Assembly: GCA_964459435.1 (NCBI GenBank)
Contig: CAYWLU010000002.1
Coordinates: forward strand, 1 to 46,685
Direction: 5' to 3'
Source of the DNA: an uncultured Candidatus Peribacteria bacterium
GTDB lineage: Bacteria; Patescibacteriota; Gracilibacteria; UBA4473
DNA: 46,685 nt
Positions 1 through 8,664 of this stretch are shown one piece after another. The notes under the pieces were generated by a model. It searched no databases. It was given only the letters and a program-made list of their open reading frames with translations, and was not told the origin of the DNA. A program made the translations under genes and the position numbers. Numbering within the stretch: the stretch's first letter is position 1; the number at the start of each line of letters is the position of its first letter.

Positions 1-387
1 TCGTTTTGTCTTTAATAAAAGCAATTGATTCTGGATTTTATTAGCAACCAAATGTTTTGATTTTTCCAAACCATCTTTCGCTAAATATTGTTTTTCTCTT
101 AATAAAAAATTTCCCTCGGTTTCACCACCGATAACTGCATAAACAGAAAAATTTATATCCATTAGAACAATAACCACTCCGAAACTAAGAGCTTTTTTTA
201 TCAATACGCTTGTTAGAGTACAATTCCCAACAATAAAAATTGAAAATATCTTATAAAATGGAACTTGATTTACTGTTTTTCCATCTTTTTGAATAATCAA
301 ATTATCATTTTTAAATTTTATATCTTTCGTTTGATAACTTTCTATAAAAATTATTTGTTTTTCACGAAAATCGGGGAGAGTTAACAT
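1..387 (-). CDS. cas1: Type V CRISPR-associated endonuclease Cas1 (5' part; runs off window edge)
   Basis: Manual translation from ATG at 387: MLTLPDFREKQIIFI...IKFKNDNLII...EGNFLLREKQY, typical N-terminus of V-A Cas1; directly downstream of cas4. Confidence 0.9.
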   Translation of the reverse strand, partial: MLTLPDFREKQIIFIESYQTKDIKFKNDNLIIQKDGKTVNQVPFYKIFSIFIVGNCTLTSVLIKKALSFGVVIVLMDINFSVYAVIGGETEGNFLLREKQYLAKDGLEKSKHLVANKIQNQLLLLKTKR

Positions 388-389
388 GG

Positions 390-944
390 TTAAAAAGGGT
401 TAGAATCACAAAGTTCTCGATAAATACATTTTTTGCATTTTTCAGGATTCTGCACGAAACCCGATTTGGTTACATCAAAACTCTTAATTTGTTCAATAAT
501 TTCTTCAAATTCCCGAATTTCTTTCTGAGTAGGTAAATCAATTTCATATCGCTTATTGTCAGAAAGCGAATGAAAAAATAATTTTTGTACTTCGTATCCC
601 ATTTCTAAAAGACAAAAATATTGAGCATAAAGCTGATAGCGATACCCATCATAAATTTTTATAATTTTGTTCTTTCTTTCAATCAGTTCTTTTTTTTCTT
701 GATCATAAATATCAATTTTTCCACAAAGGTTATATTTCTCGCTATAGACCTCTAATGCTTGAATATATCGCTTTAAACTTGAATATTTTTTCTCATCAAT
801 ACTCTCGTGTTTGATAGTGCCAATAATTTGTGGATTCTGTTTATAAAGTCGGTTATTATATCTTCCATATAATTTATGGAAGTAAATTGATTTTGGGCAA
901 AACACAAAGTCATTAAGAGTTGTAATTGTAATATAAGATTCCAT
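390..944 (-). CDS. cas4: Type V CRISPR-associated Cas4 nuclease
   Basis: LNDFVFCPKSIY, GKIDIY, IERK, QLYAQYFCL, C-terminal CKKCIYRELC Fe-S ligands; between cas12a and cas1. Confidence 0.93.
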   Translation of the reverse strand: MESYITITTLNDFVFCPKSIYFHKLYGRYNNRLYKQNPQIIGTIKHESIDEKKYSSLKRYIQALEVYSEKYNLCGKIDIYDQEKKELIERKNKIIKIYDGYRYQLYAQYFCLLEMGYEVQKLFFHSLSDNKRYEIDLPTQKEIREFEEIIEQIKSFDVTKSGFVQNPEKCKKCIYRELCDSNPF

Positions 945-1477: not shown

Positions 1478-4400
1478 TCATGATTGTTTGTTTTGGGTGA
1501 AGTTATCCCATTCAGTGTTTCCGATAAAAAGATTTGGATATTTCTTTTCTGGTTTTTCCTCTTTTTTTAACTTTTTATTATCTTTACTCCACTCATTAAT
1601 TTTTTGAAGTGTAATTACTCCCTTTCTCGCAATATTAAATGCTCCATTGTCATCCCCATTTTTTGGAAGCTTATTACCATTATCTGCACGGCTATCAAAA
1701 AATGGTGCAACTGGAGAAAGAATAAAATCATTATCATCTCCTTTTTCATCTAGATTTGTATTTCGAATCTGACAAATCAAGTTAAATAAGAAAATAAAAT
1801 CCCTAAAAAATTTCACATTTTCTTTTTCATTCAATGCCTCTATTTGTGCCTTAATATCTTTATTCCAATCAATCCCAGCATCCTCAAATAACTGCTTAAA
1901 TTCATTCGTCAAATCTCCATAATAGTCATACCCGCCCTTATTATTATTCAATCCCCTATTCCATCGAAATCGCTCTACACACGAACACACTGTCCAAATC
2001 GTATTTTTCGGAGCATCTTTCAGTTCTTTAAATTTTCCAATATCATAAGTAAACTCAAATCGATCATTCTCAAATTCTATTTTTGAAAATTTAAAAATCT
2101 CTTGTTTTGCTTTTTCTGCACTTGAATATTTCAAATACAAATTCGGTCGCCAACCAGTAATTGGATCAATTTTTGAGGTATAACTTGCAGTCGTATAAAA
2201 AATAATTCCTGTTTGTTTTCCCATATCTTTAAAAGTTTCAAATGGAGATGCTAATTGATATGCTTTTAGTAAATGACCCGCTTGTTCAGAATTCTTTTCC
2301 CCTTTGTTTACCAAGAAATTCAATTTCTCAATCAAAGCTTTTTCAAGTTGCTGATACACACTTTTTTCAATCCCTCCTCTAATTTGCTTAAATCGCATAT
2401 TTAAATCTTCAAATACAATAATAGCATTATACTTAATCGCTAAATCCGCCAGTTTTCGGACAACTTGAGAAATATATCCTTTTTTCAAGTCTTTAATCCC
2501 TTCCACCGCCTGCCAATCTTTTCTTTCTTGTTCTCGATTTTTTGCCTTTTCTTCTAGTTTTTGATGATAATCAACTCCATTTATAATATTCAAAGTTCCC
2601 GAAACAGGATTTCCATTTTTATCATGCAATATTTCTGACTTCTGATTTATCACAGAATAATACGCTAAATGCTTCTCTCCTCGATCTACTCCAATAATAT
2701 TTATATCTGGATTATGAGCCAAAAATTCATTTATCTGTTGATTAAAAGAAAACGGTTTTCCTGTTCCTCGATTGAGTGTCAAAGAAATATGAAAGAATAC
2801 TTTATTCTTTGTATAACGCTTCTTTTCAATTATTTCTCGTGGAAATTTTCGTTTAACTTTCACTGCATCAATTGCCTTTGGACGATAGAAAACTTCTGCC
2901 TGTCCATTTAATTTAAAAATAAAATTCTTTGCAATATTTTCCTCGGAAAAAAGATTTTCAAAATACATTGTATGAAGATTCTTGCTTCCTGTTGAACCTT
3001 TATTCCAATCCTTGTTTTTAATTTGAAAAAGATATAATTCACCATTTTTATTTTTTTCTTCGAGATGTTTTTCGGAAATATTATCCCAAGAGATTTTATA
3101 CCCACCTTTTTCTACTTCTCTATAAAAGCCACTAATGTCTTCATAAGAAGATGTATCAGAGAATGTAAAATCAAAATCTTTCCATTCTTTATGTTTTTTT
3201 AGAGAATTTTTAAAGAAATCAATCAAAGCATGACAGTCATTTATGTTAAAATCTTTTTTCTCAAAACCCTTTTGCGGATCCCCACCTTTTGTATGGCTTG
3301 AATGATTTCGAATTCTTAATATCTCAGCAGAAGGATTAAAAAAATCAATATTTGATTTACTGAAAAATACCTTCGGAAGCATTTTATTCGCCCCTGGTAA
3401 AAGTTTATAAACCATTTTTTCGTACTCATTTCCTGCAAATTCATCTCTATTTTTGTCATCAAAAATATGAGTATTACCTTTCTTCATCAATGCTAAAAAA
3501 TATTCCTCATCTTTACGCAAAATAACTGAAGCATTCGCACTTTCCTTATTTTTATCCCATCCATCAGAAAGAGTTGGTAAATCAAAATTCAACTTCCACT
3601 TCTGAACTTCTTCCCATGGTTTCTTTGTTAAATAATTTCTCAAAAGATTATAGGGCTGAATAATGGTTTCAAAAGTATCATGATAATATTCATCCTTGAA
3701 TAATGAATAGAAATTACTCTCTATCTCAATTGAATCATCCCATTTCTTTTTTTTCTCAATCGCAAAATACTTAGAAAATTGATATACCGACAATAAACTA
3801 TCTGCATAATCTTTAACTATAATTTTCATTTTAGGCGTTTTCTCCAACCCTTCCTCACTCAATAAATTTTTTAATTTTTCAGAAAAAATATCATACCCTA
3901 TCGTTTTTTCACCTTTATCTGTTTGAATTATTTTCTCAAAAAGTTCAGAAAATTCTATCTCAAAAATCTGCAAAAATTGACTCCAAATATCCTCCTGTAA
4001 CTTTATATTTTCTTGATACTTCTCCTTCCAGAAATTTCCCTTCATATTCAACTTCTCCAAAGATTTTTTGAGATACTCTAATGGAATAAAATCAGGAAAA
4101 GGAATTTCCCCACCCTCATTTTTCTTTAAAGTTTTCTTTTCCTCCTCCTTAAATACTTTTGCCAACGCATCAGCCCATTCATTCGTTTTATATGTCCAAC
4201 GCCGAGAAATCGTTTCAAAACCTTTCTTTGACCAATAAATTTTAGATAACTCAAACCCCTCTGGCGAATTTATAAATTTCCTAAAAAGAGCTTTAAGAAT
4301 TTGAGTCTTTTCCACCCCTGTTTTCAATAATTCTTCCAAAACTAATTTTAATCTCGTATCATCCTCTATTTCATCAATAAACTTTTCTTTTTCACTCAAA

Positions 4401-5311
4401 ATTTGTTTATCAAGTGTTTTTAAATATTGAATTTTTTCTTTTGTATCCTGTCGGTGCTTGTTTATCTTTGATTTCACCCTCCCAATAATATCATTATAAC
4501 GATTTATCCCTTTTGTCTTTTTTTCATCTCCCTGCAAAATAAATTCAACATAATTTTCAATATGACAAATTTCTTCTCTGTCCGCTATATCAAGTTTTGA
4601 TAAAAAATTAGATGGATATTTTTCTATCGTCCATATGTTTTCTACAAATCTTCGTAAATTTTGATCAATAATTCTTGTTGCCAAAGCAGTTGAAGTTCCA
4701 TCATCTTTATAAAAATTCTTTCGAGTCTCAAAAAATTTCGTAAAATATCCCGTAAAACCTTTCCATTCATCAAAAATAGATACCGTTTCTTCTGTTATTT
4801 CTCCAGTTTTTTTGTTCACATATTCTACAGAAATAAATGTCTCTGCTTCTTTCCCATATCGAACCTTTAATAATTCAGAAAACACTGCCTCTTCATCTAA
4901 AATTTTTAAATCGTTATTCTTTAATCCTAAATATTTCTCTGACCATTTTTTTGCCTGCGCATTAAAAAAACCAACAACTTCTTTCCTCAATCTTTTTTCT
5001 TCATTTTCAAGACCCTTTTTCCATTGGTCTTTTTGTTTTTTATCTGTTTCTTTCGTGATTTTTTTCACATTCTTTAGAGCATCTGCATACTGCTGAATAT
5101 TTGAAAAAGAAACATCCTTCAATGCTTCTGCAACAAATTCTCGATGTAAACGGTCAAAATACACTTTCGTTTGCTTATATTTTTTTTGAATAATTTCATC
5201 TTTCTCGAATACATGATTATCTTCTAGCATTTGCTGAGTCTTCCCCACAGGTTTCAACTCAAACCTCAAAGTCTTACTCAACTCATACAAATTTGTGAAT
5301 TCTTTAAACAT
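1478..5311 (-). CDS. cas12a: Type V-A CRISPR effector Cas12a (Cpf1), 1277 aa
   Basis: N-terminal FTNLYELSKTLRFELKP; PI motif YKLLPGANKMLPKVFFS; RuvC-I IIGVDRGEKHL, RuvC-II IVFEDL, RuvC-III NGDDNGAFNIARKG all intact; followed by cas4-cas1. Confidence 0.97.
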   Translation of the reverse strand: MFKEFTNLYELSKTLRFELKPVGKTQQMLEDNHVFEKDEIIQKKYKQTKVYFDRLHREFVAEALKDVSFSNIQQYADALKNVKKITKETDKKQKDQWKKGLENEEKRLRKEVVGFFNAQAKKWSEKYLGLKNNDLKILDEEAVFSELLKVRYGKEAETFISVEYVNKKTGEITEETVSIFDEWKGFTGYFTKFFETRKNFYKDDGTSTALATRIIDQNLRRFVENIWTIEKYPSNFLSKLDIADREEICHIENYVEFILQGDEKKTKGINRYNDIIGRVKSKINKHRQDTKEKIQYLKTLDKQILSEKEKFIDEIEDDTRLKLVLEELLKTGVEKTQILKALFRKFINSPEGFELSKIYWSKKGFETISRRWTYKTNEWADALAKVFKEEEKKTLKKNEGGEIPFPDFIPLEYLKKSLEKLNMKGNFWKEKYQENIKLQEDIWSQFLQIFEIEFSELFEKIIQTDKGEKTIGYDIFSEKLKNLLSEEGLEKTPKMKIIVKDYADSLLSVYQFSKYFAIEKKKKWDDSIEIESNFYSLFKDEYYHDTFETIIQPYNLLRNYLTKKPWEEVQKWKLNFDLPTLSDGWDKNKESANASVILRKDEEYFLALMKKGNTHIFDDKNRDEFAGNEYEKMVYKLLPGANKMLPKVFFSKSNIDFFNPSAEILRIRNHSSHTKGGDPQKGFEKKDFNINDCHALIDFFKNSLKKHKEWKDFDFTFSDTSSYEDISGFYREVEKGGYKISWDNISEKHLEEKNKNGELYLFQIKNKDWNKGSTGSKNLHTMYFENLFSEENIAKNFIFKLNGQAEVFYRPKAIDAVKVKRKFPREIIEKKRYTKNKVFFHISLTLNRGTGKPFSFNQQINEFLAHNPDINIIGVDRGEKHLAYYSVINQKSEILHDKNGNPVSGTLNIINGVDYHQKLEEKAKNREQERKDWQAVEGIKDLKKGYISQVVRKLADLAIKYNAIIVFEDLNMRFKQIRGGIEKSVYQQLEKALIEKLNFLVNKGEKNSEQAGHLLKAYQLASPFETFKDMGKQTGIIFYTTASYTSKIDPITGWRPNLYLKYSSAEKAKQEIFKFSKIEFENDRFEFTYDIGKFKELKDAPKNTIWTVCSCVERFRWNRGLNNNKGGYDYYGDLTNEFKQLFEDAGIDWNKDIKAQIEALNEKENVKFFRDFIFLFNLICQIRNTNLDEKGDDNDFILSPVAPFFDSRADNGNKLPKNGDDNGAFNIARKGVITLQKINEWSKDNKKLKKEEKPEKKYPNLFIGNTEWDNFTQNKQS

Positions 5312-5336
5312 AAAAAATAGGATTAAAAAATATTAT

Positions 5337-5372
5337 AAAAAAAAATTATGCGTTGGTTTATTACCAAACGCA
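5337..5372 (-). terminator. Hairpin plus U-tract downstream of the solitary repeat/spacer
   Basis: Minus strand TGCGTTTGGT-AATAA-ACCAACGCA followed by TAATTTTTTTTT. Confidence 0.55.
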
Positions 5373-5401
5373 ATCTCGTATAAATGGTTATAATAATTAA
5401 A

Positions 5402-5460
5402 TAAAAAACCACACAAGATAACTAATCTACAAAAGTAGAAATTGAATAAGAACAAACATT
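5402..5460 (-). CRISPR. Solitary Cas12a-type repeat plus spacer-like segment (crRNA-like unit, not an array)
   Basis: Minus 5443-5425 = AATTTCTACTTTTGTAGAT, the canonical 19-nt Cas12a handle with UUUU loop; followed by TAGTTATCTTGTGTGGTTTTTTA; same orientation as cas12a. Confidence 0.85.
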
Positions 5461-5483
5461 CCCATTCAGCTTCCACTTTTTTA

Positions 5484-5512
5484 TTGACTTTTAAAAATAC
5501 CCATTGTATAAT
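5484..5512 (+). promoter_or_regulatory. Sigma70-type promoter, divergent from cas12a
   Basis: TTGACT-17 nt-TATAAT. Confidence 0.7.
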
Positions 5513-5518
5513 TTGAAT

Positions 5519-5629
5519 ACATTGCGGTATTGCTTTTAGGTTGTCCTCTGTTGACATAAACGCTCCTTTAAGAAAGAAACAATTCACAGGCTCTGTTTCC
5601 CACATGCTAGGGAGAGGGAGCTTTTTTTT
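5519..5629 (+). ncRNA. Putative ~110-nt small RNA
   Basis: Bounded by the promoter at 5484-5512 and a terminator hairpin 5590-5621 plus T8; no convincing ORF on this strand. Confidence 0.55.
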
Positions 5630-6008
5630 ATTTACCATAATATGTAGAAATTAAAAATAATTTTTTATCTTTTTTATACAATTCTTCTCTCAAATGAATA
5701 TGTATTTTCTTTTTATCAGCAGATATTCCTAATATTTCATACCCACTTATTTTTTTTGAAACAACAGTAGCATTTTTAACAATATCAATTCCAACCCAAA
5801 ATGCTTGCATTCTATTTTTACAATTTTTTCTTTTTATAATTGCTTCTGGCAATTTATCTAAAAAAACTTTACGATTTTTTAAACTCTTACAGCGAACAAA
5901 TGGATGATCTTTTAAATATTTTTTAAACATGCCCCTAAGAGTACTTGTTCCCTGTTTTTCTATAAACTTTTTAGATTGATATATCATCTCAAACTCTTCT
6001 TTTTTCAT
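5628..6008 (-). CDS. Small basic hypothetical protein, possibly a BECR/RelE-like nuclease fold
   Basis: 126-aa Lys-rich ORF with its own promoter; C-terminal beta-rich pattern (IHIHLRE...KLFLISTY); fold assignment is inference. Confidence 0.65.
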   Translation of the reverse strand: MKKEEFEMIYQSKKFIEKQGTSTLRGMFKKYLKDHPFVRCKSLKNRKVFLDKLPEAIIKRKNCKNRMQAFWVGIDIVKNATVVSKKISGYEILGISADKKKIHIHLREELYKKDKKLFLISTYYGK

Positions 6009-6017
6009 TATAAGAAA

Positions 6018-6046
6018 ATATTACTTTCTTAAAAGACCTATGTCAA
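6018..6046 (-). promoter_or_regulatory. Sigma70-type promoter of the 126-aa gene (near-leaderless)
   Basis: TTGACA-17 nt-TAATAT, ending 9 nt before ATG at 6008. Confidence 0.7.
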
Positions 6047-6076
6047 AACTTTTTTTCTAGTTATGGGTATATAGAA

Positions 6077-6151
6077 CTAAAAATAATTTTTATCCATCAC
6101 GACAAAACTCAACTCATACAAATTCGTGAATTCGGAAAAAGCAGAAGCCAT
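6077..6151 (-). pseudogene. Remnant 5' end of a second cas12a (MASAFSEFTNLYELS...)
   Basis: 6107-6133 matches cas12a 5276-5302 at 26/27 nt in the same frame; 24-codon mini-ORF. Confidence 0.75.
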
Positions 6152-6170
6152 GTAAATTAAATATTATTTG

Positions 6171-6219
6171 TATAATTTATAGCTATTGACGAGCAAAAAA
6201 TCAATACCTGATTTTCATA
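6171..6219 (-). repeat. 49-bp promoter-like direct repeat, copy 1
   Basis: 41/49 identical to 6891-6939; minus strand TTGATT-17-TATAAA with ATTGA..TCAAT inverted repeat. Confidence 0.75.
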
Positions 6220-6225
6220 GATCTT

Positions 6226-6867
6226 TCATACTTCATGATCTCGAAACATTGAAAGTTCCTCATTTATTGCATCCATATCTACAACTGTAGGATCAAAATC
6301 TTTCGGGTCTTCTAATTCTTCAATTTCTGGAATCATCTCACACATCCATTCCACAATAGACTCTGCCTCTTCTTCATTAATACCTTCTATTTTAATCCCC
6401 TTTAAAATGTTGAGTTTATTATACCAACCCCAAAGACTCCCTGAATCCTCACAAGGTGCATGCATAGAAGCTTTTATACATTTAGGATAATCCAAATCAT
6501 AATCATCAATAATTTTTTCAAGAATAATTCCATGATGCCAATCATCCCCAAAATCATAAGTATAAGAAATTCTATCACCTTTGTTTTTAAGATAATCGAT
6601 TATTTTTTCTGTTCTACTATCAATACTTCCAATCTCTTCGTTTTCCTCAATAGATAAATCTACAATTTGCTCATCATTCCAAAGCCGTGCTCTTCCCCCT
6701 TCTTCGAAACCATACAAATGGTACCCCTCCCAATCAAAAGATGACTGAATAGCCAAATGCAAATCATGAAAAGTACAGTTTGATGGTATGACTATTCTAC
6801 GCCATATTGGTGGTTTACTATGATTGATAATAATTTTTAATTGTAAACCAGACTTTTTTTTAGACAT
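6226..6867 (-). CDS. Plasmid pRiA4b ORF-3 family protein
   Basis: PPIWRRIVIP, LHLAIQSSFDWEGYHLYGF, YTYDFGDDWHH, PCEDSG motifs; start moved to MSKKK. Confidence 0.88.
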   Translation of the reverse strand: MSKKKSGLQLKIIINHSKPPIWRRIVIPSNCTFHDLHLAIQSSFDWEGYHLYGFEEGGRARLWNDEQIVDLSIEENEEIGSIDSRTEKIIDYLKNKGDRISYTYDFGDDWHHGIILEKIIDDYDLDYPKCIKASMHAPCEDSGSLWGWYNKLNILKGIKIEGINEEEAESIVEWMCEMIPEIEELEDPKDFDPTVVDMDAINEELSMFRDHEV

Positions 6868-6890
6868 GGCATTTTGATTAGTTAGTACTT

Positions 6891-6939
6891 TATAATTCAT
6901 AGCTATTGATCATCAAAAAATCAATGACAAATTTTCATA
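6891..6939 (-). repeat. 49-bp promoter-like direct repeat, copy 2
   Basis: 41/49 identical to 6171-6219. Confidence 0.75.
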
Positions 6940-6984
6940 AAATTTTCATTTTTAAATATTTCCTATTTGAAATTCGAAGGAAGC

Positions 6985-7022
6985 AGATTGCCACACCCGC
7001 CCAAGGCGGGGTTCGCAATGAC
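6985..7022. repeat. REP-like family A half element
   Basis: AGATTGCCAC-hairpin-TTCGCAATGAC. Confidence 0.7.
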
Positions 7023-7082
7023 GATATTTTTAGATTCTTCATACTACGCATATAAAATTTGAACGCAGGCTTTTTTTAATTT

Positions 7083-7212
7083 GTCATACCGCATTTATTG
7101 CGGTATTTAACCATAAAACAAAGCAGGTGCTTAATTAACAGCCAGATCCCGCAATAAATGCGGGATGACAGAGGGTGTAATGCGGAATGACAGAGGTTAA
7201 ATGCGGGATAAC
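7083..7212. repeat. REP/MITE-like family B element with extra partial tandem ends
   Basis: GTCATACCGCATTTATTGCGG...GATCCCGCAATAAATGCGGGATGAC; internal sequence shared with 35654-35740. Confidence 0.8.
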
Positions 7213-7224
7213 ATATTATAATAC

Positions 7225-7743
7225 TCACTTTTCCAAAAAATACTCATGAATTCTAATTTCGCCAACTAATTCTGGATGAAAACTACATACTAAAAAATTA
7301 TCTTGTTCCACTAATACTGGTTCATCATTAAAACTTGCTAAAACAATACCCGTTTTACCAACCTTAAATTTAGGAGCTCGGATAAAAATCCCTTTAAGTT
7401 CTGAAAACATTTCCGATTCCAATTCAGCTTCAAAAGAATCTTTTTGAGCCCCATAACCATTTCTATCTACTTCAATATCCATCCCTAACTTGGCACATAA
7501 TATTGACCCAGCACAAGTACCAAAAACTTTTAGTCCCTTTATACTCTTTTCTAATTCTTCCCACATTCCAGACTTCTTAAGTAGTTTTTCTATAGTGGTA
7601 CTTTCTCCTCCGGGAATTATCAAATGCGTTAGATTTATTAAATCTTGTTTTGTTTTTACTAAAATAAATTCTTGTTTTAGTTTTTGCAGAACAACTTCGT
7701 GTTCTGAAAAGGAACCTTGTAGCGCTAAAATACCTACTTTCAT
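7225..7743 (-). CDS. pdxT: PLP synthase glutaminase subunit PdxT
   Basis: GILALQG, PGGESTT, GTCAG, FIRAP, FHPEL motifs. Confidence 0.95.
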   Translation of the reverse strand: MKVGILALQGSFSEHEVVLQKLKQEFILVKTKQDLINLTHLIIPGGESTTIEKLLKKSGMWEELEKSIKGLKVFGTCAGSILCAKLGMDIEVDRNGYGAQKDSFEAELESEMFSELKGIFIRAPKFKVGKTGIVLASFNDEPVLVEQDNFLVCSFHPELVGEIRIHEYFLEK

Positions 7744-7753
7744 CGTAATATAA

Positions 7754-8617
7754 TCAACGACCAGCAAATTCTGTTTCTAAATCTTCCATTTCCATTCCCT
7801 CCATTGCCTCTCCTATATTTTTCGAAACTTTTGCCAATAGTTCTGGATCTTTGAAATGAGTAGTTGCTTCCACGATGGCTCTAGCCATCTGTTTAGGATT
7901 CTCTGCCCCAAATATCCCCGAACCAACAAAAACTCCTTCTACTCCTAATTGCATCATTAAGGCGGCATCTGCTGGAGTAGCCACTCCTCCAGCAGCAAAA
8001 TTAACCACTGGTAACTTCTTTTTATTAAAAACCATGCGAACAAGTCTCTTGTCTACACCGAACTCTTTGGCTTTCCCTTCTAAATTAGAACTAGTTAGTT
8101 CTCCTATTTCTCTGTTAATACATCTTATATGTCGCACTGCTTCTACAATATTACCAGTACCTGCTTCGCCTTTAGTTCTAATCATAGCCGCTCCTTCTGC
8201 AATTCTCCGTAACGCTTCTCCTAAATTTCTCGCTCCACAAATAAAAGGAAGTTTGAACTCATTTTTATCTATATGATTTTCTTCGTCTGCCGGAGTAAGT
8301 ACTTCAGATTCATCTATAAAATCAATATCTAGCACTTCTAGAATTTGTGCCTCCACAAAATGACCAATCCGCACCTTCGCCATAACAGGAATAGAAACTG
8401 CTCGCTTAATCTCTCTAACCATTGAAGGATCTGACATCCGAGCCACTTTTTTATCTTTGCGAATAAGAAAAGGAATCCTTTCTAAAGCCATAACAGCCAC
8501 CGCACCAGCTTCTTCTGCAATTTTAGCCTGCTCTACATTCATAACATCCATAATAACTCCCCCCTTGAGCATTTGAGCAAGTCCAGATTTAAGAAGAAAA
8601 GTATTTTTTTGTACCAT
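7754..8617 (-). CDS. pdxS: PLP synthase subunit PdxS
   Basis: [43 protein letters not shown]. Confidence 0.97.
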
Positions 8618-8664
8618 GTGAAAAGATTCTAAATATTTTTTCAAAAAAATCGATTCTAATTTCT

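Follow-up and report, generated by a model that had tools for sequence, protein, structure and literature searches.

The window, that is, the whole stretch of 46,685 nucleotides analysed here, belongs to a Candidatus Peribacteria genome of 938 kb in 119 contigs and opens with part of a type V-A cas operon read from the minus strand. Upstream of cas12a lies a short crRNA-like element, followed by an open reading frame, ORF126, and its convergent sRNA-like partner. The features of this region, in the order of their coordinates, are listed below.

1..387, minus strand: N-terminal part of cas1 (first 129 aa) at the window edge, assigned by Pfam.
390..944, minus strand: cas4, assigned by Pfam.
1478..5311, minus strand: full-length cas12a (1277 aa), with Pfam RuvC_1 (1e-80), Cpf1_PI-like, NUC and REC1 and with PDB Cas12a matches at E 2e-206.
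5337..5371, minus strand: rho-independent terminator, predicted from sequence and fold; stem 5371..5350 (GCGTTTGGT / ACCAACGC) with one bulge, then AUAA and U9 (5345..5337).
5399..5424, minus strand: pseudo-spacer (psiS), beginning TAGTTATCTTGTGTGG at 5424, with the seed TAGTTAT (5424..5418) and the core CTTGTGTGG (5417..5409), the latter kept in a related locus, L018.
5425..5443, minus strand: pseudo-repeat (psiR), the mature-crRNA 5' handle AATTTCTACTTTTGTAGAT, equal to the 3' 19 nt of the array repeat.
5441..5468, minus strand: 11-bp hairpin directly 5' of the handle, from RNA folding; the last base of the hairpin is the first base of the handle.
5484..5629, plus strand: convergent sRNA-like gene paired with ORF126; promoter TTGACT-17-TATAAT at 5484-5512, RNA at about 5515-5629, ending in a hairpin and T8.
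5628..6008, minus strand: ORF126, of an unnamed family of about 120 aa whose relatives elsewhere are not CRISPR-linked.
6018..6046, minus strand: promoter-like TTGACA-17-TAATAT (10/12) upstream of ORF126, from a promoter scan.
6054..6081, plus strand: candidate CreR target, from a seed scan; PAM TTTC at 6054-6057, 7-nt seed match TAGTTAT at 6058-6064, no pairing past the seed.
6077..6151, minus strand: remnant of a cas12a 5' end (ATG and 24 codons), upstream of ORF126.

The operon goes on in another contig, C28, with the 3' part of cas1, cas2, a leader and a canonical array whose 36-nt repeat, ATCTAACCCGCCCATTGAATTTCTACTTTTGTAGAT, is present in 15 exact copies and one copy with a single mismatch (16 repeats). 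A previous reading of the region 5337-5460, made from the sequence only, had described one perfect 19-nt Cas12a handle on the minus strand (5443..5425) with TATTC directly 5' of it, next a spacer-like stretch and then a hairpin with a U9 that ends about 25 nt before the cas12a ATG. The sequence reads precisely so, all of these parts are present, and the gap between the U-run and the ATG (5311) is 25 nt. The comparison with the array repeat beyond the left edge, which that reading had proposed, gives 19/19 identity to the 3' end of the C28 repeat. Elsewhere in the genome the handle 19-mer occurs in the array copies of C28, plus one look-alike with two mismatches on contig C3 (C3:20255-20273, plus strand), which we rejected as a second element and ascribe to chance because it is part of a long ORF with the look of a penicillin-binding protein gene. 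Since the handle recurs in an array only on C28 after cas2, the element stands alone at the end of the operon farthest from the array, where it had been placed before.

The handle is unique in the window even when up to three mismatches are allowed. By chance, 0.15 matches would be expected at this stringency and at least one match was found in 14 of 100 shuffles, an exact match being far rarer. The claim that there is no second intact repeat thus stands. The suggestion that CATTTATACGAGAT (5386..5373) is a decayed second repeat was abandoned, as this stretch has 7/14 positions in common with the 3' end of the handle by our own count, gives no match at up to three mismatches, and pairs with the pseudo-spacer in the predicted fold. 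An orphan or decayed array would hold at least two repeats and a spacer that matches a mobile element. The window contains no second handle, no significant psiS protospacers were found in phage collections, and the search of viral contigs returned one 16-mer match with neither a PAM nor any extension. The full match to a phage or plasmid, which the sequence-only reading had named as the sign of an array remnant, was therefore found neither in the phage collections nor among the viral contigs, and the lack of a protospacer in the phage collections makes psiS unlike an ordinary captured spacer.

The 159-nt region of the element folds far better than expected from its composition (z = -4.8, with 0/200 shuffles equally good) into four hairpins, which comprise the one 5' of the handle, the repeat hairpin, a hairpin of psiS with the supposed decayed repeat, and the terminator; a simple terminator scan, which listed 0 terminator-like sites under its criteria, missed the terminator hairpin of the element. 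Rfam assigned no family to the element, its two matches (E 0.4-0.8) being far below the gathering scores. A small ORF that runs across it (P0002, 74 aa) has no family matches and was judged spurious, and the ORF over the corresponding element of L018 reads the handle in a different frame. The 17 nt that stand in place of the 5' part of the array repeat are identical to it at 5/17 positions, which is the random level (own count), as against 19/19 in the handle. This difference points to selection on the handle, and the element looks like a chromosomal crRNA-like regulatory RNA gene under selection, apparently loadable into Cas12a, and not like a repeat in decay.

The named relatives of this Cas12a come from CPR/Patescibacteria MAGs (Peribacteria, Gracilibacteria, Saccharibacteria, Dojkabacteria). 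The scan of cas12a upstream regions covered four same-family loci that include the cas12a start and 32 loci on genome or metagenome contigs (210 to 3000 nt upstream). On the cas12a strand, 1/32 and 0/4 of these loci carry a solitary handle, the one locus being L018 of a Gracilibacteria MAG, whose Cas12a is 50% identical to the present one over the N-terminal 400 aa. The available upstream sequence of the other 31 loci and of all four family loci has no handle on that strand, and the closer Cas12a relatives (56-60% identity) are among those without the element in the scanned sequence. The L018 handle matches the array repeat of its own genome at 18/19 positions. It stands on the cas12a strand, 331 nt upstream of that gene, and is followed by a pseudo-spacer, a terminator (GAAAGC..GCTTTC and T8) and then a promoter-like TTGACT-18-TATATT (10/12). 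As here, a long hairpin directly precedes the handle on its 5' side, psiS forms a local hairpin, and the counterpart of the 5' 17 nt of the repeat is at the random level. In both genomes the array stands downstream of the cas genes; the array repeats are alike, and so, by eye, are the leaders.

Handle and psiS together form the sole significant non-coding homology of the two upstream regions (43 nt, 79% identity, E 3.8e-7 in a small search). Anchored at the end of the handle, the two pseudo-spacers are identical at 16/26 positions, unevenly distributed, with 2/7 in the seed and 14/18 at positions 8-25, and they have in common the core CTYGTGTGG at positions 8-16. This second, by its sequence homologous, element upstream of a distant cas12a is a new finding. 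Strict and relaxed patterns built on handle and psiS retrieved no further true copies from 400 phylum, 42 family, 60 L018-relative and 400 class genomes or from viral contigs. Nine other pattern matches in the class were rejected, the ORF calls and the verdicts on G775, G787 and G795 being our own reading. One (G731) is an array, five lie inside an Hsp70-like ORF, one (G775) would be coding only if TGA is read as Gly, one (G787) stands alone, has an unmatched core and shows no cas12a-like ORF up to 900 nt away, and in the last (G795) the stem is broken. Among the scanned loci, the match in L040 is an array, and L044 carries one handle on the opposite strand at position ~51, at the locus edge and 2950 nt upstream of cas12a, which may be an array end or another solitary unit. 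A motif AARGTGGAA, present 5' of both solitary repeats and in both leaders, was dropped because it has 27 occurrences in this genome.

Candidate targets were sought in the 1 kb upstream of each cas12a as a TTTV followed by a contiguous match to the seed. The locus in the window yielded one 7-nt match, at 6058-6064 (next best 3 nt), and L018 one 6-nt match, TTTC with AGAATA (next best 2 nt), where pairing likewise ends at the seed. The PAM of the former lies 8 nt from the -35 edge of the promoter-like 6046..6018, the best of its kind on the cas12a strand in 5200-6400, and the L018 match sits between the -35 and the -10 of the promoter-like site after the terminator. The probability of such a match by chance anywhere in the 1 kb is 0.015-0.03 for the own locus and 0.02-0.03 for L018, and within 40 nt of the promoter-like site 0.0015 and 0.012, respectively; these values are optimistic, because the promoter windows and the target sites were chosen after seeing the data. 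When the array spacers served as a control, 0/15 had a match as long as 7 nt in that 1 kb, the longest being 6 nt. That a TTTC-flanked match to each seed stands at the promoter-like site of its own locus, either next to it or within it, so that seed and predicted target vary together, is likewise a new finding. Both target sites share TTTC-N7-GGGYATATA (6065-6073, plus strand; L018 2795-2803), a likeness noticed after the fact; the motifs GGGYATATA and CTYGTGTGG are not complementary to each other.

Genome-wide, 11 of the 57,984 TTTV sites are followed by a seed match of at least 7 nt; nine of these lie inside ORFs of at least 80 aa, and the 6058 site is among the other two. The search for TTTV with the beginning of the spacer, also proposed by the sequence-only reading, has thus brought a 7-nt site near a predicted promoter and no credible target of greater length. 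Longer matches of 10 nt at C15:14937 (PAM CTTT, in a membrane-protein ORF), C2:39916 and C3:395 (the latter two with no T-rich PAM) were judged to be chance, and TTTA with TAATATT in the interval between terminator and ATG was discarded for seed mismatches at positions 3, 5 and 6. The promoter scan, by its criteria, gave no promoter-like site on that strand either immediately 5' of the solitary repeat or in the interval from its terminator to the ATG. The candidate target precedes the solitary repeat by about 610 nt, and the way from the promoter-like 6046..6018 to cas12a leads through two terminator-like hairpins.

The reading that we favour, at roughly even chances of being right, is that the element is a type V-A CreR-type gene whose RNA would load Cas12a and, through a short seed, hold it near a promoter, damping the unit that runs into cas12a. 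The transcript of the element would be cut by Cas12a 5' of the handle, or just bound there. The resulting crRNA-like RNA, with UAGUUAU as its first 7 nt, would pair with the TTTC-flanked site at 6054-6064, 8 nt upstream of the -35 of the predicted promoter. Pairing stops after the seed, for which reason binding without cutting is proposed, and Cas12a bound in this way would damp transcription through ORF126 and the solitary repeat into cas12a. The outcome would be a negative feedback that also senses competition from the array crRNAs. Expression, loading, binding and repression, as well as read-through of the two terminators into cas12a, are steps that we infer.

Processing by Cas12a itself deserves a separate comment. 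At residues ~810-835 (window ~2810-2860, minus strand), alignments place a 14-aa loop, from FYRPK to KKRY, that contains no histidine, and the same His-less loop of 14 aa is common to six other CPR Cas12a (L012, L022, L027, L031, L035, L041). In Fn, As and Mb Cas12a the loop at this place is longer and carries the pre-crRNA RNase histidine, so self-processing of pre-crRNA by the present Cas12a is not assured. The His-less loop, the seeds of 6-7 nt, the distance and the two terminators that separate the target from cas12a, and the restriction to two loci are the main weaknesses of the CreR reading. The conserved psiS core CTYGTGTGG is also left unexplained by a model that relies on the seed only.

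If the CreR reading is true, RNA-guided autorepression of Cas12a reaches the ultra-small CPR bacteria. The two loci would then be a natural pair of homologous regulators in which the seeds have diverged with their targets while the 9-nt psiS core has stayed fixed, a handle on the evolution of such regulators. It would also bear on the minimal complementarity (6-7 nt with a PAM) needed for repression by Cas12a, which is relevant to off-target binding of Cas12a tools. If it is false, the element is one more solitary repeat beside cas12a, a common thing.

The architecture itself is in print. According to the available text of two reports (Liu et al., bioRxiv 10.1101/2023.03.10.532045; bioRxiv 10.1101/2024.10.29.618823), the genes for CreR RNAs lie upstream of cas genes of types I and V-A, and the RNAs guide the effector to its own promoter via partial complementarity. 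In the parts of these reports that are accessible, the target of the Moraxella bovoculi Cas12a CreR has a TTTA PAM "very adjacent" to the -35, and the CreR/Cracr of Ruminococcus consists of one pseudo-repeat with a pseudo-spacer and a rho-independent terminator and matches its target at 10 consecutive nt, the screen having required at least 9 PAM-proximal pairs (10.1101/2023.03.10.532045; 10.1101/2024.10.29.618823). Several marks of a V-A CreR are found here as well: the same handle as in the array repeat, a position upstream on the cas12a strand, and a predicted 3' end formed by a hairpin and U9. As far as these sources describe them, the V-A CreRs of M. bovoculi and Ruminococcus sp. resemble the present element in lying upstream of cas12a on the same strand, in a psiR that gives the array-repeat handle and in having a psiS; the Ruminococcus CreR resembles it further in the single psiR with a rho-independent terminator. 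A PAM-flanked partial match at or next to a -35 may be a further point in common, the site here being a candidate beside a predicted promoter. The differences, on the same limited view of the sources, are the seed of 7 nt here and 6 nt in L018 versus 10 in the validated Ruminococcus case (9-10 nt in the published cases), the target lying upstream of the inserted ORF126 and not directly in the cas12a promoter, the CPR host, and the fact that the element is known from sequence alone.

The sequence-only reading had regarded the locus as an undescribed system. With V-A CreR and solitary repeat units upstream of cas12a already described in the accessible parts of the literature, that claim falls, and the element is probably a further CreR-type example from a new host group. 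The idea of a Cas12a-guided regulatory RNA fares better, with selection on the handle, the L018 homologue with its conserved psiS core and the PAM-flanked seed match near a promoter-like site all in its favour. A literature text search that joined Cas12a, crRNA-like RNA and CPR had no Cas12a paper among the matches listed. Other non-canonical guides are more distant relatives. Like the present element, tracr-L of type II-A and the scaRNA of Francisella Cas9 turn an effector into a repressor through short complementarity, but they differ in effector and RNA architecture, there being no tracrRNA in V-A. Viral RNAs of a single repeat with a terminator hijack V-A systems, as stated in the portions available of 10.1101/2023.03.10.532045 and 10.1101/2024.10.29.618823; these Racr/Cracr share with our element the single repeat, short spacer and terminator, but they are carried by phages and plasmids, whereas the element here is chromosomal, inside a cas locus and with a homologue in another cas12a locus.

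A possible, though doubtful, alternative is that the RNA binds Cas12a by its handle and has no DNA target. It would then titrate Cas12a, as a buffer or decoy, or serve as a processing or binding site within the ORF126-cas12a transcript that sets the 5' end or the fate of the cas12a mRNA. Solitary repeats adjoin cas12a in about 34% of V-A loci in the analysis of Shmakov et al. (bioRxiv 10.1101/2023.03.03.530964), and in a third to half across reports, as far as their available text goes. Shmakov et al. (10.1101/2023.03.03.530964), in the part that is accessible, see no conserved targeting pattern, propose binding or inhibition of the effector and discuss recombination sites. What marks a standalone repeat unit was found here too, namely the 19-nt exact match and the homologous copy in L018. 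Judged from the same partial text, their units (SRUs) are alike in being solitary repeat-like sequences next to cas12a, with no second repeat and kept in at least one related locus; they are unlike in their low repeat identity and lack of detectable targeting, against an exact handle and a seed/target pattern in two loci here, and their clades are Francisella, Moraxella, Ruminococcus and Eubacteriales, against CPR here. The shortness of the seed matches, the local psiS hairpin in both loci and a core conserved independently of the seed agree with a non-targeting RNA. It is at odds with the observation that two different seeds each have a TTTC-flanked match at their own promoter-like site, as a pure decoy has no need of seed and target co-variation.

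A second alternative starts from ORF126 and is, in our judgement, improbable. The RNA would guide Cas12a onto the promoter of ORF126, taken as a toxin of RelE/BrnT fold, and loss or inhibition of Cas12a would free the toxin, a V-A safeguard in the manner of CreTA. In CreTA, too, a crRNA-like RNA adjoins a toxin gene and partially matches the promoter of that gene. CreTA is known for type I Cascade, however; in the present locus Cas12a would be the effector, and the candidate toxin comes with an sRNA of its own and is found apart from CRISPR. The candidate target does stand beside the promoter-like site directly upstream of ORF126. The structural model of ORF126 has a pLDDT of 94.6, and a wide structural aligner places RelE, BrnT, YoeB, HigB, ParE, MqsR and CdiA-CT toxins on top. 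These fold matches are weak, with Z of 3-5 (best 5.0, below the stated noise level of the tool), and Foldseek with the same model found nothing at E <= 0.001. The family has 80 representatives at E <= 1e-3, its alignment shows near-invariant H105, R107 and E108, and searches of ORF126 against Pfam, PHROG and PADLOC gave no match. A RelE/BrnT-like toxin is therefore a lead from the model and not a finding.

The surroundings of ORF126 in other genomes also speak against such a safeguard. Relatives of ORF126 occur in 4/42 other family genomes, none of the four with a cas12a match, and for this reason the ORF126-sRNA pair looks self-contained. In 3/3 downstream regions examined (L052, L053, L054) a convergent sRNA-like gene of 108-122 nt follows the relative, as here. 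Across the four loci these genes have a -10-like box and a terminator, with compensatory changes in 7/12 predicted stem pairs, and ORF126 with its sRNA may be a toxin-antitoxin-like module. The "divergent sRNA" to which the sequence-only reading had linked the element hence belongs to ORF126, which it also accompanies in genomes without a cas12a match, and not to the CRISPR system. No handle was found near the ORF126 modules elsewhere in the 230 nt examined downstream, and the L018 element is beside a cas12a promoter-like site with no ORF126 nearby. A seed of just 7 nt is a further point against the safeguard. Equally unlikely, to our mind, is its fullest form, in which a guide with a 7-nt seed would act on the promoter of an inserted RelE-fold toxin gene heading the cas12a transcript, combining autoregulation with an addiction or anti-anti-CRISPR safeguard in a CPR host with a His-less Cas12a.

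The element might also be an inert remnant or recombination scar, a repeat left over from a rearrangement of the locus and devoid of function, and this too has little probability. The rearrangement is plain to see: the copies of a 27-nt direct repeat at 5276-5302 and 6107-6133 (26/27, at a distance of 831 nt) flank ORF126, the sRNA and the solitary repeat, and together with the cas12a remnant they suggest an insertion or recombination at the cas12a start. Solitary repeats are, in the accessible text of Shmakov et al. (10.1101/2023.03.03.530964), discussed as recombination sites, and the absence of the element beside the closer Cas12a relatives fits a scar as well. A scar is hard to reconcile with a perfect handle in an otherwise randomised repeat, with the strong structure of the region, and with a homologue of handle, psiS and terminator kept where Cas12a is just 50% identical. 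That the element is a mobile-element RNA anti-CRISPR of the Racr/Cracr type, which arrived with the ORF126-sRNA cassette and sequesters or silences Cas12a, is very unlikely, since, although the 831-nt unit between direct repeats looks inserted and viral single-repeat RNAs with terminators that hijack V-A are known from the available text of 10.1101/2023.03.10.532045 and 10.1101/2024.10.29.618823, the L018 homologue has no ORF126 cassette, the ORF126 modules elsewhere have no handle in the stretch examined, and viral contigs gave 0 matches to the handle and psiS pattern.

The arrangement around the solitary repeat is also present in a Logan contig of 2173 nt from another assembler, which spans 4991-6900 with no differences; as it is probably from the source sample, it supports the assembly and is not independent. 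The corresponding site of a same-genus genome (G028:C7, locus L073), compared with window 6226-8644, has pdxS-pdxT and then an unrelated 134-aa ORF and an SNase-like lipoprotein gene, and no PRiA4-like gene, ORF126 or cas genes. From this empty site, the whole CRISPR island here is an insertion. The 134-aa ORF was considered as a relative of ORF126 and rejected (hhalign probability 0.7%). The ORF after the array on C28 starts, by eye, like the SNase-like lipoprotein of G028, and a PRiA4_ORF3-like gene (Pfam 6.8e-45; 6226-6900, minus strand) adjoins the cas12a remnant on its upstream side, within the island.
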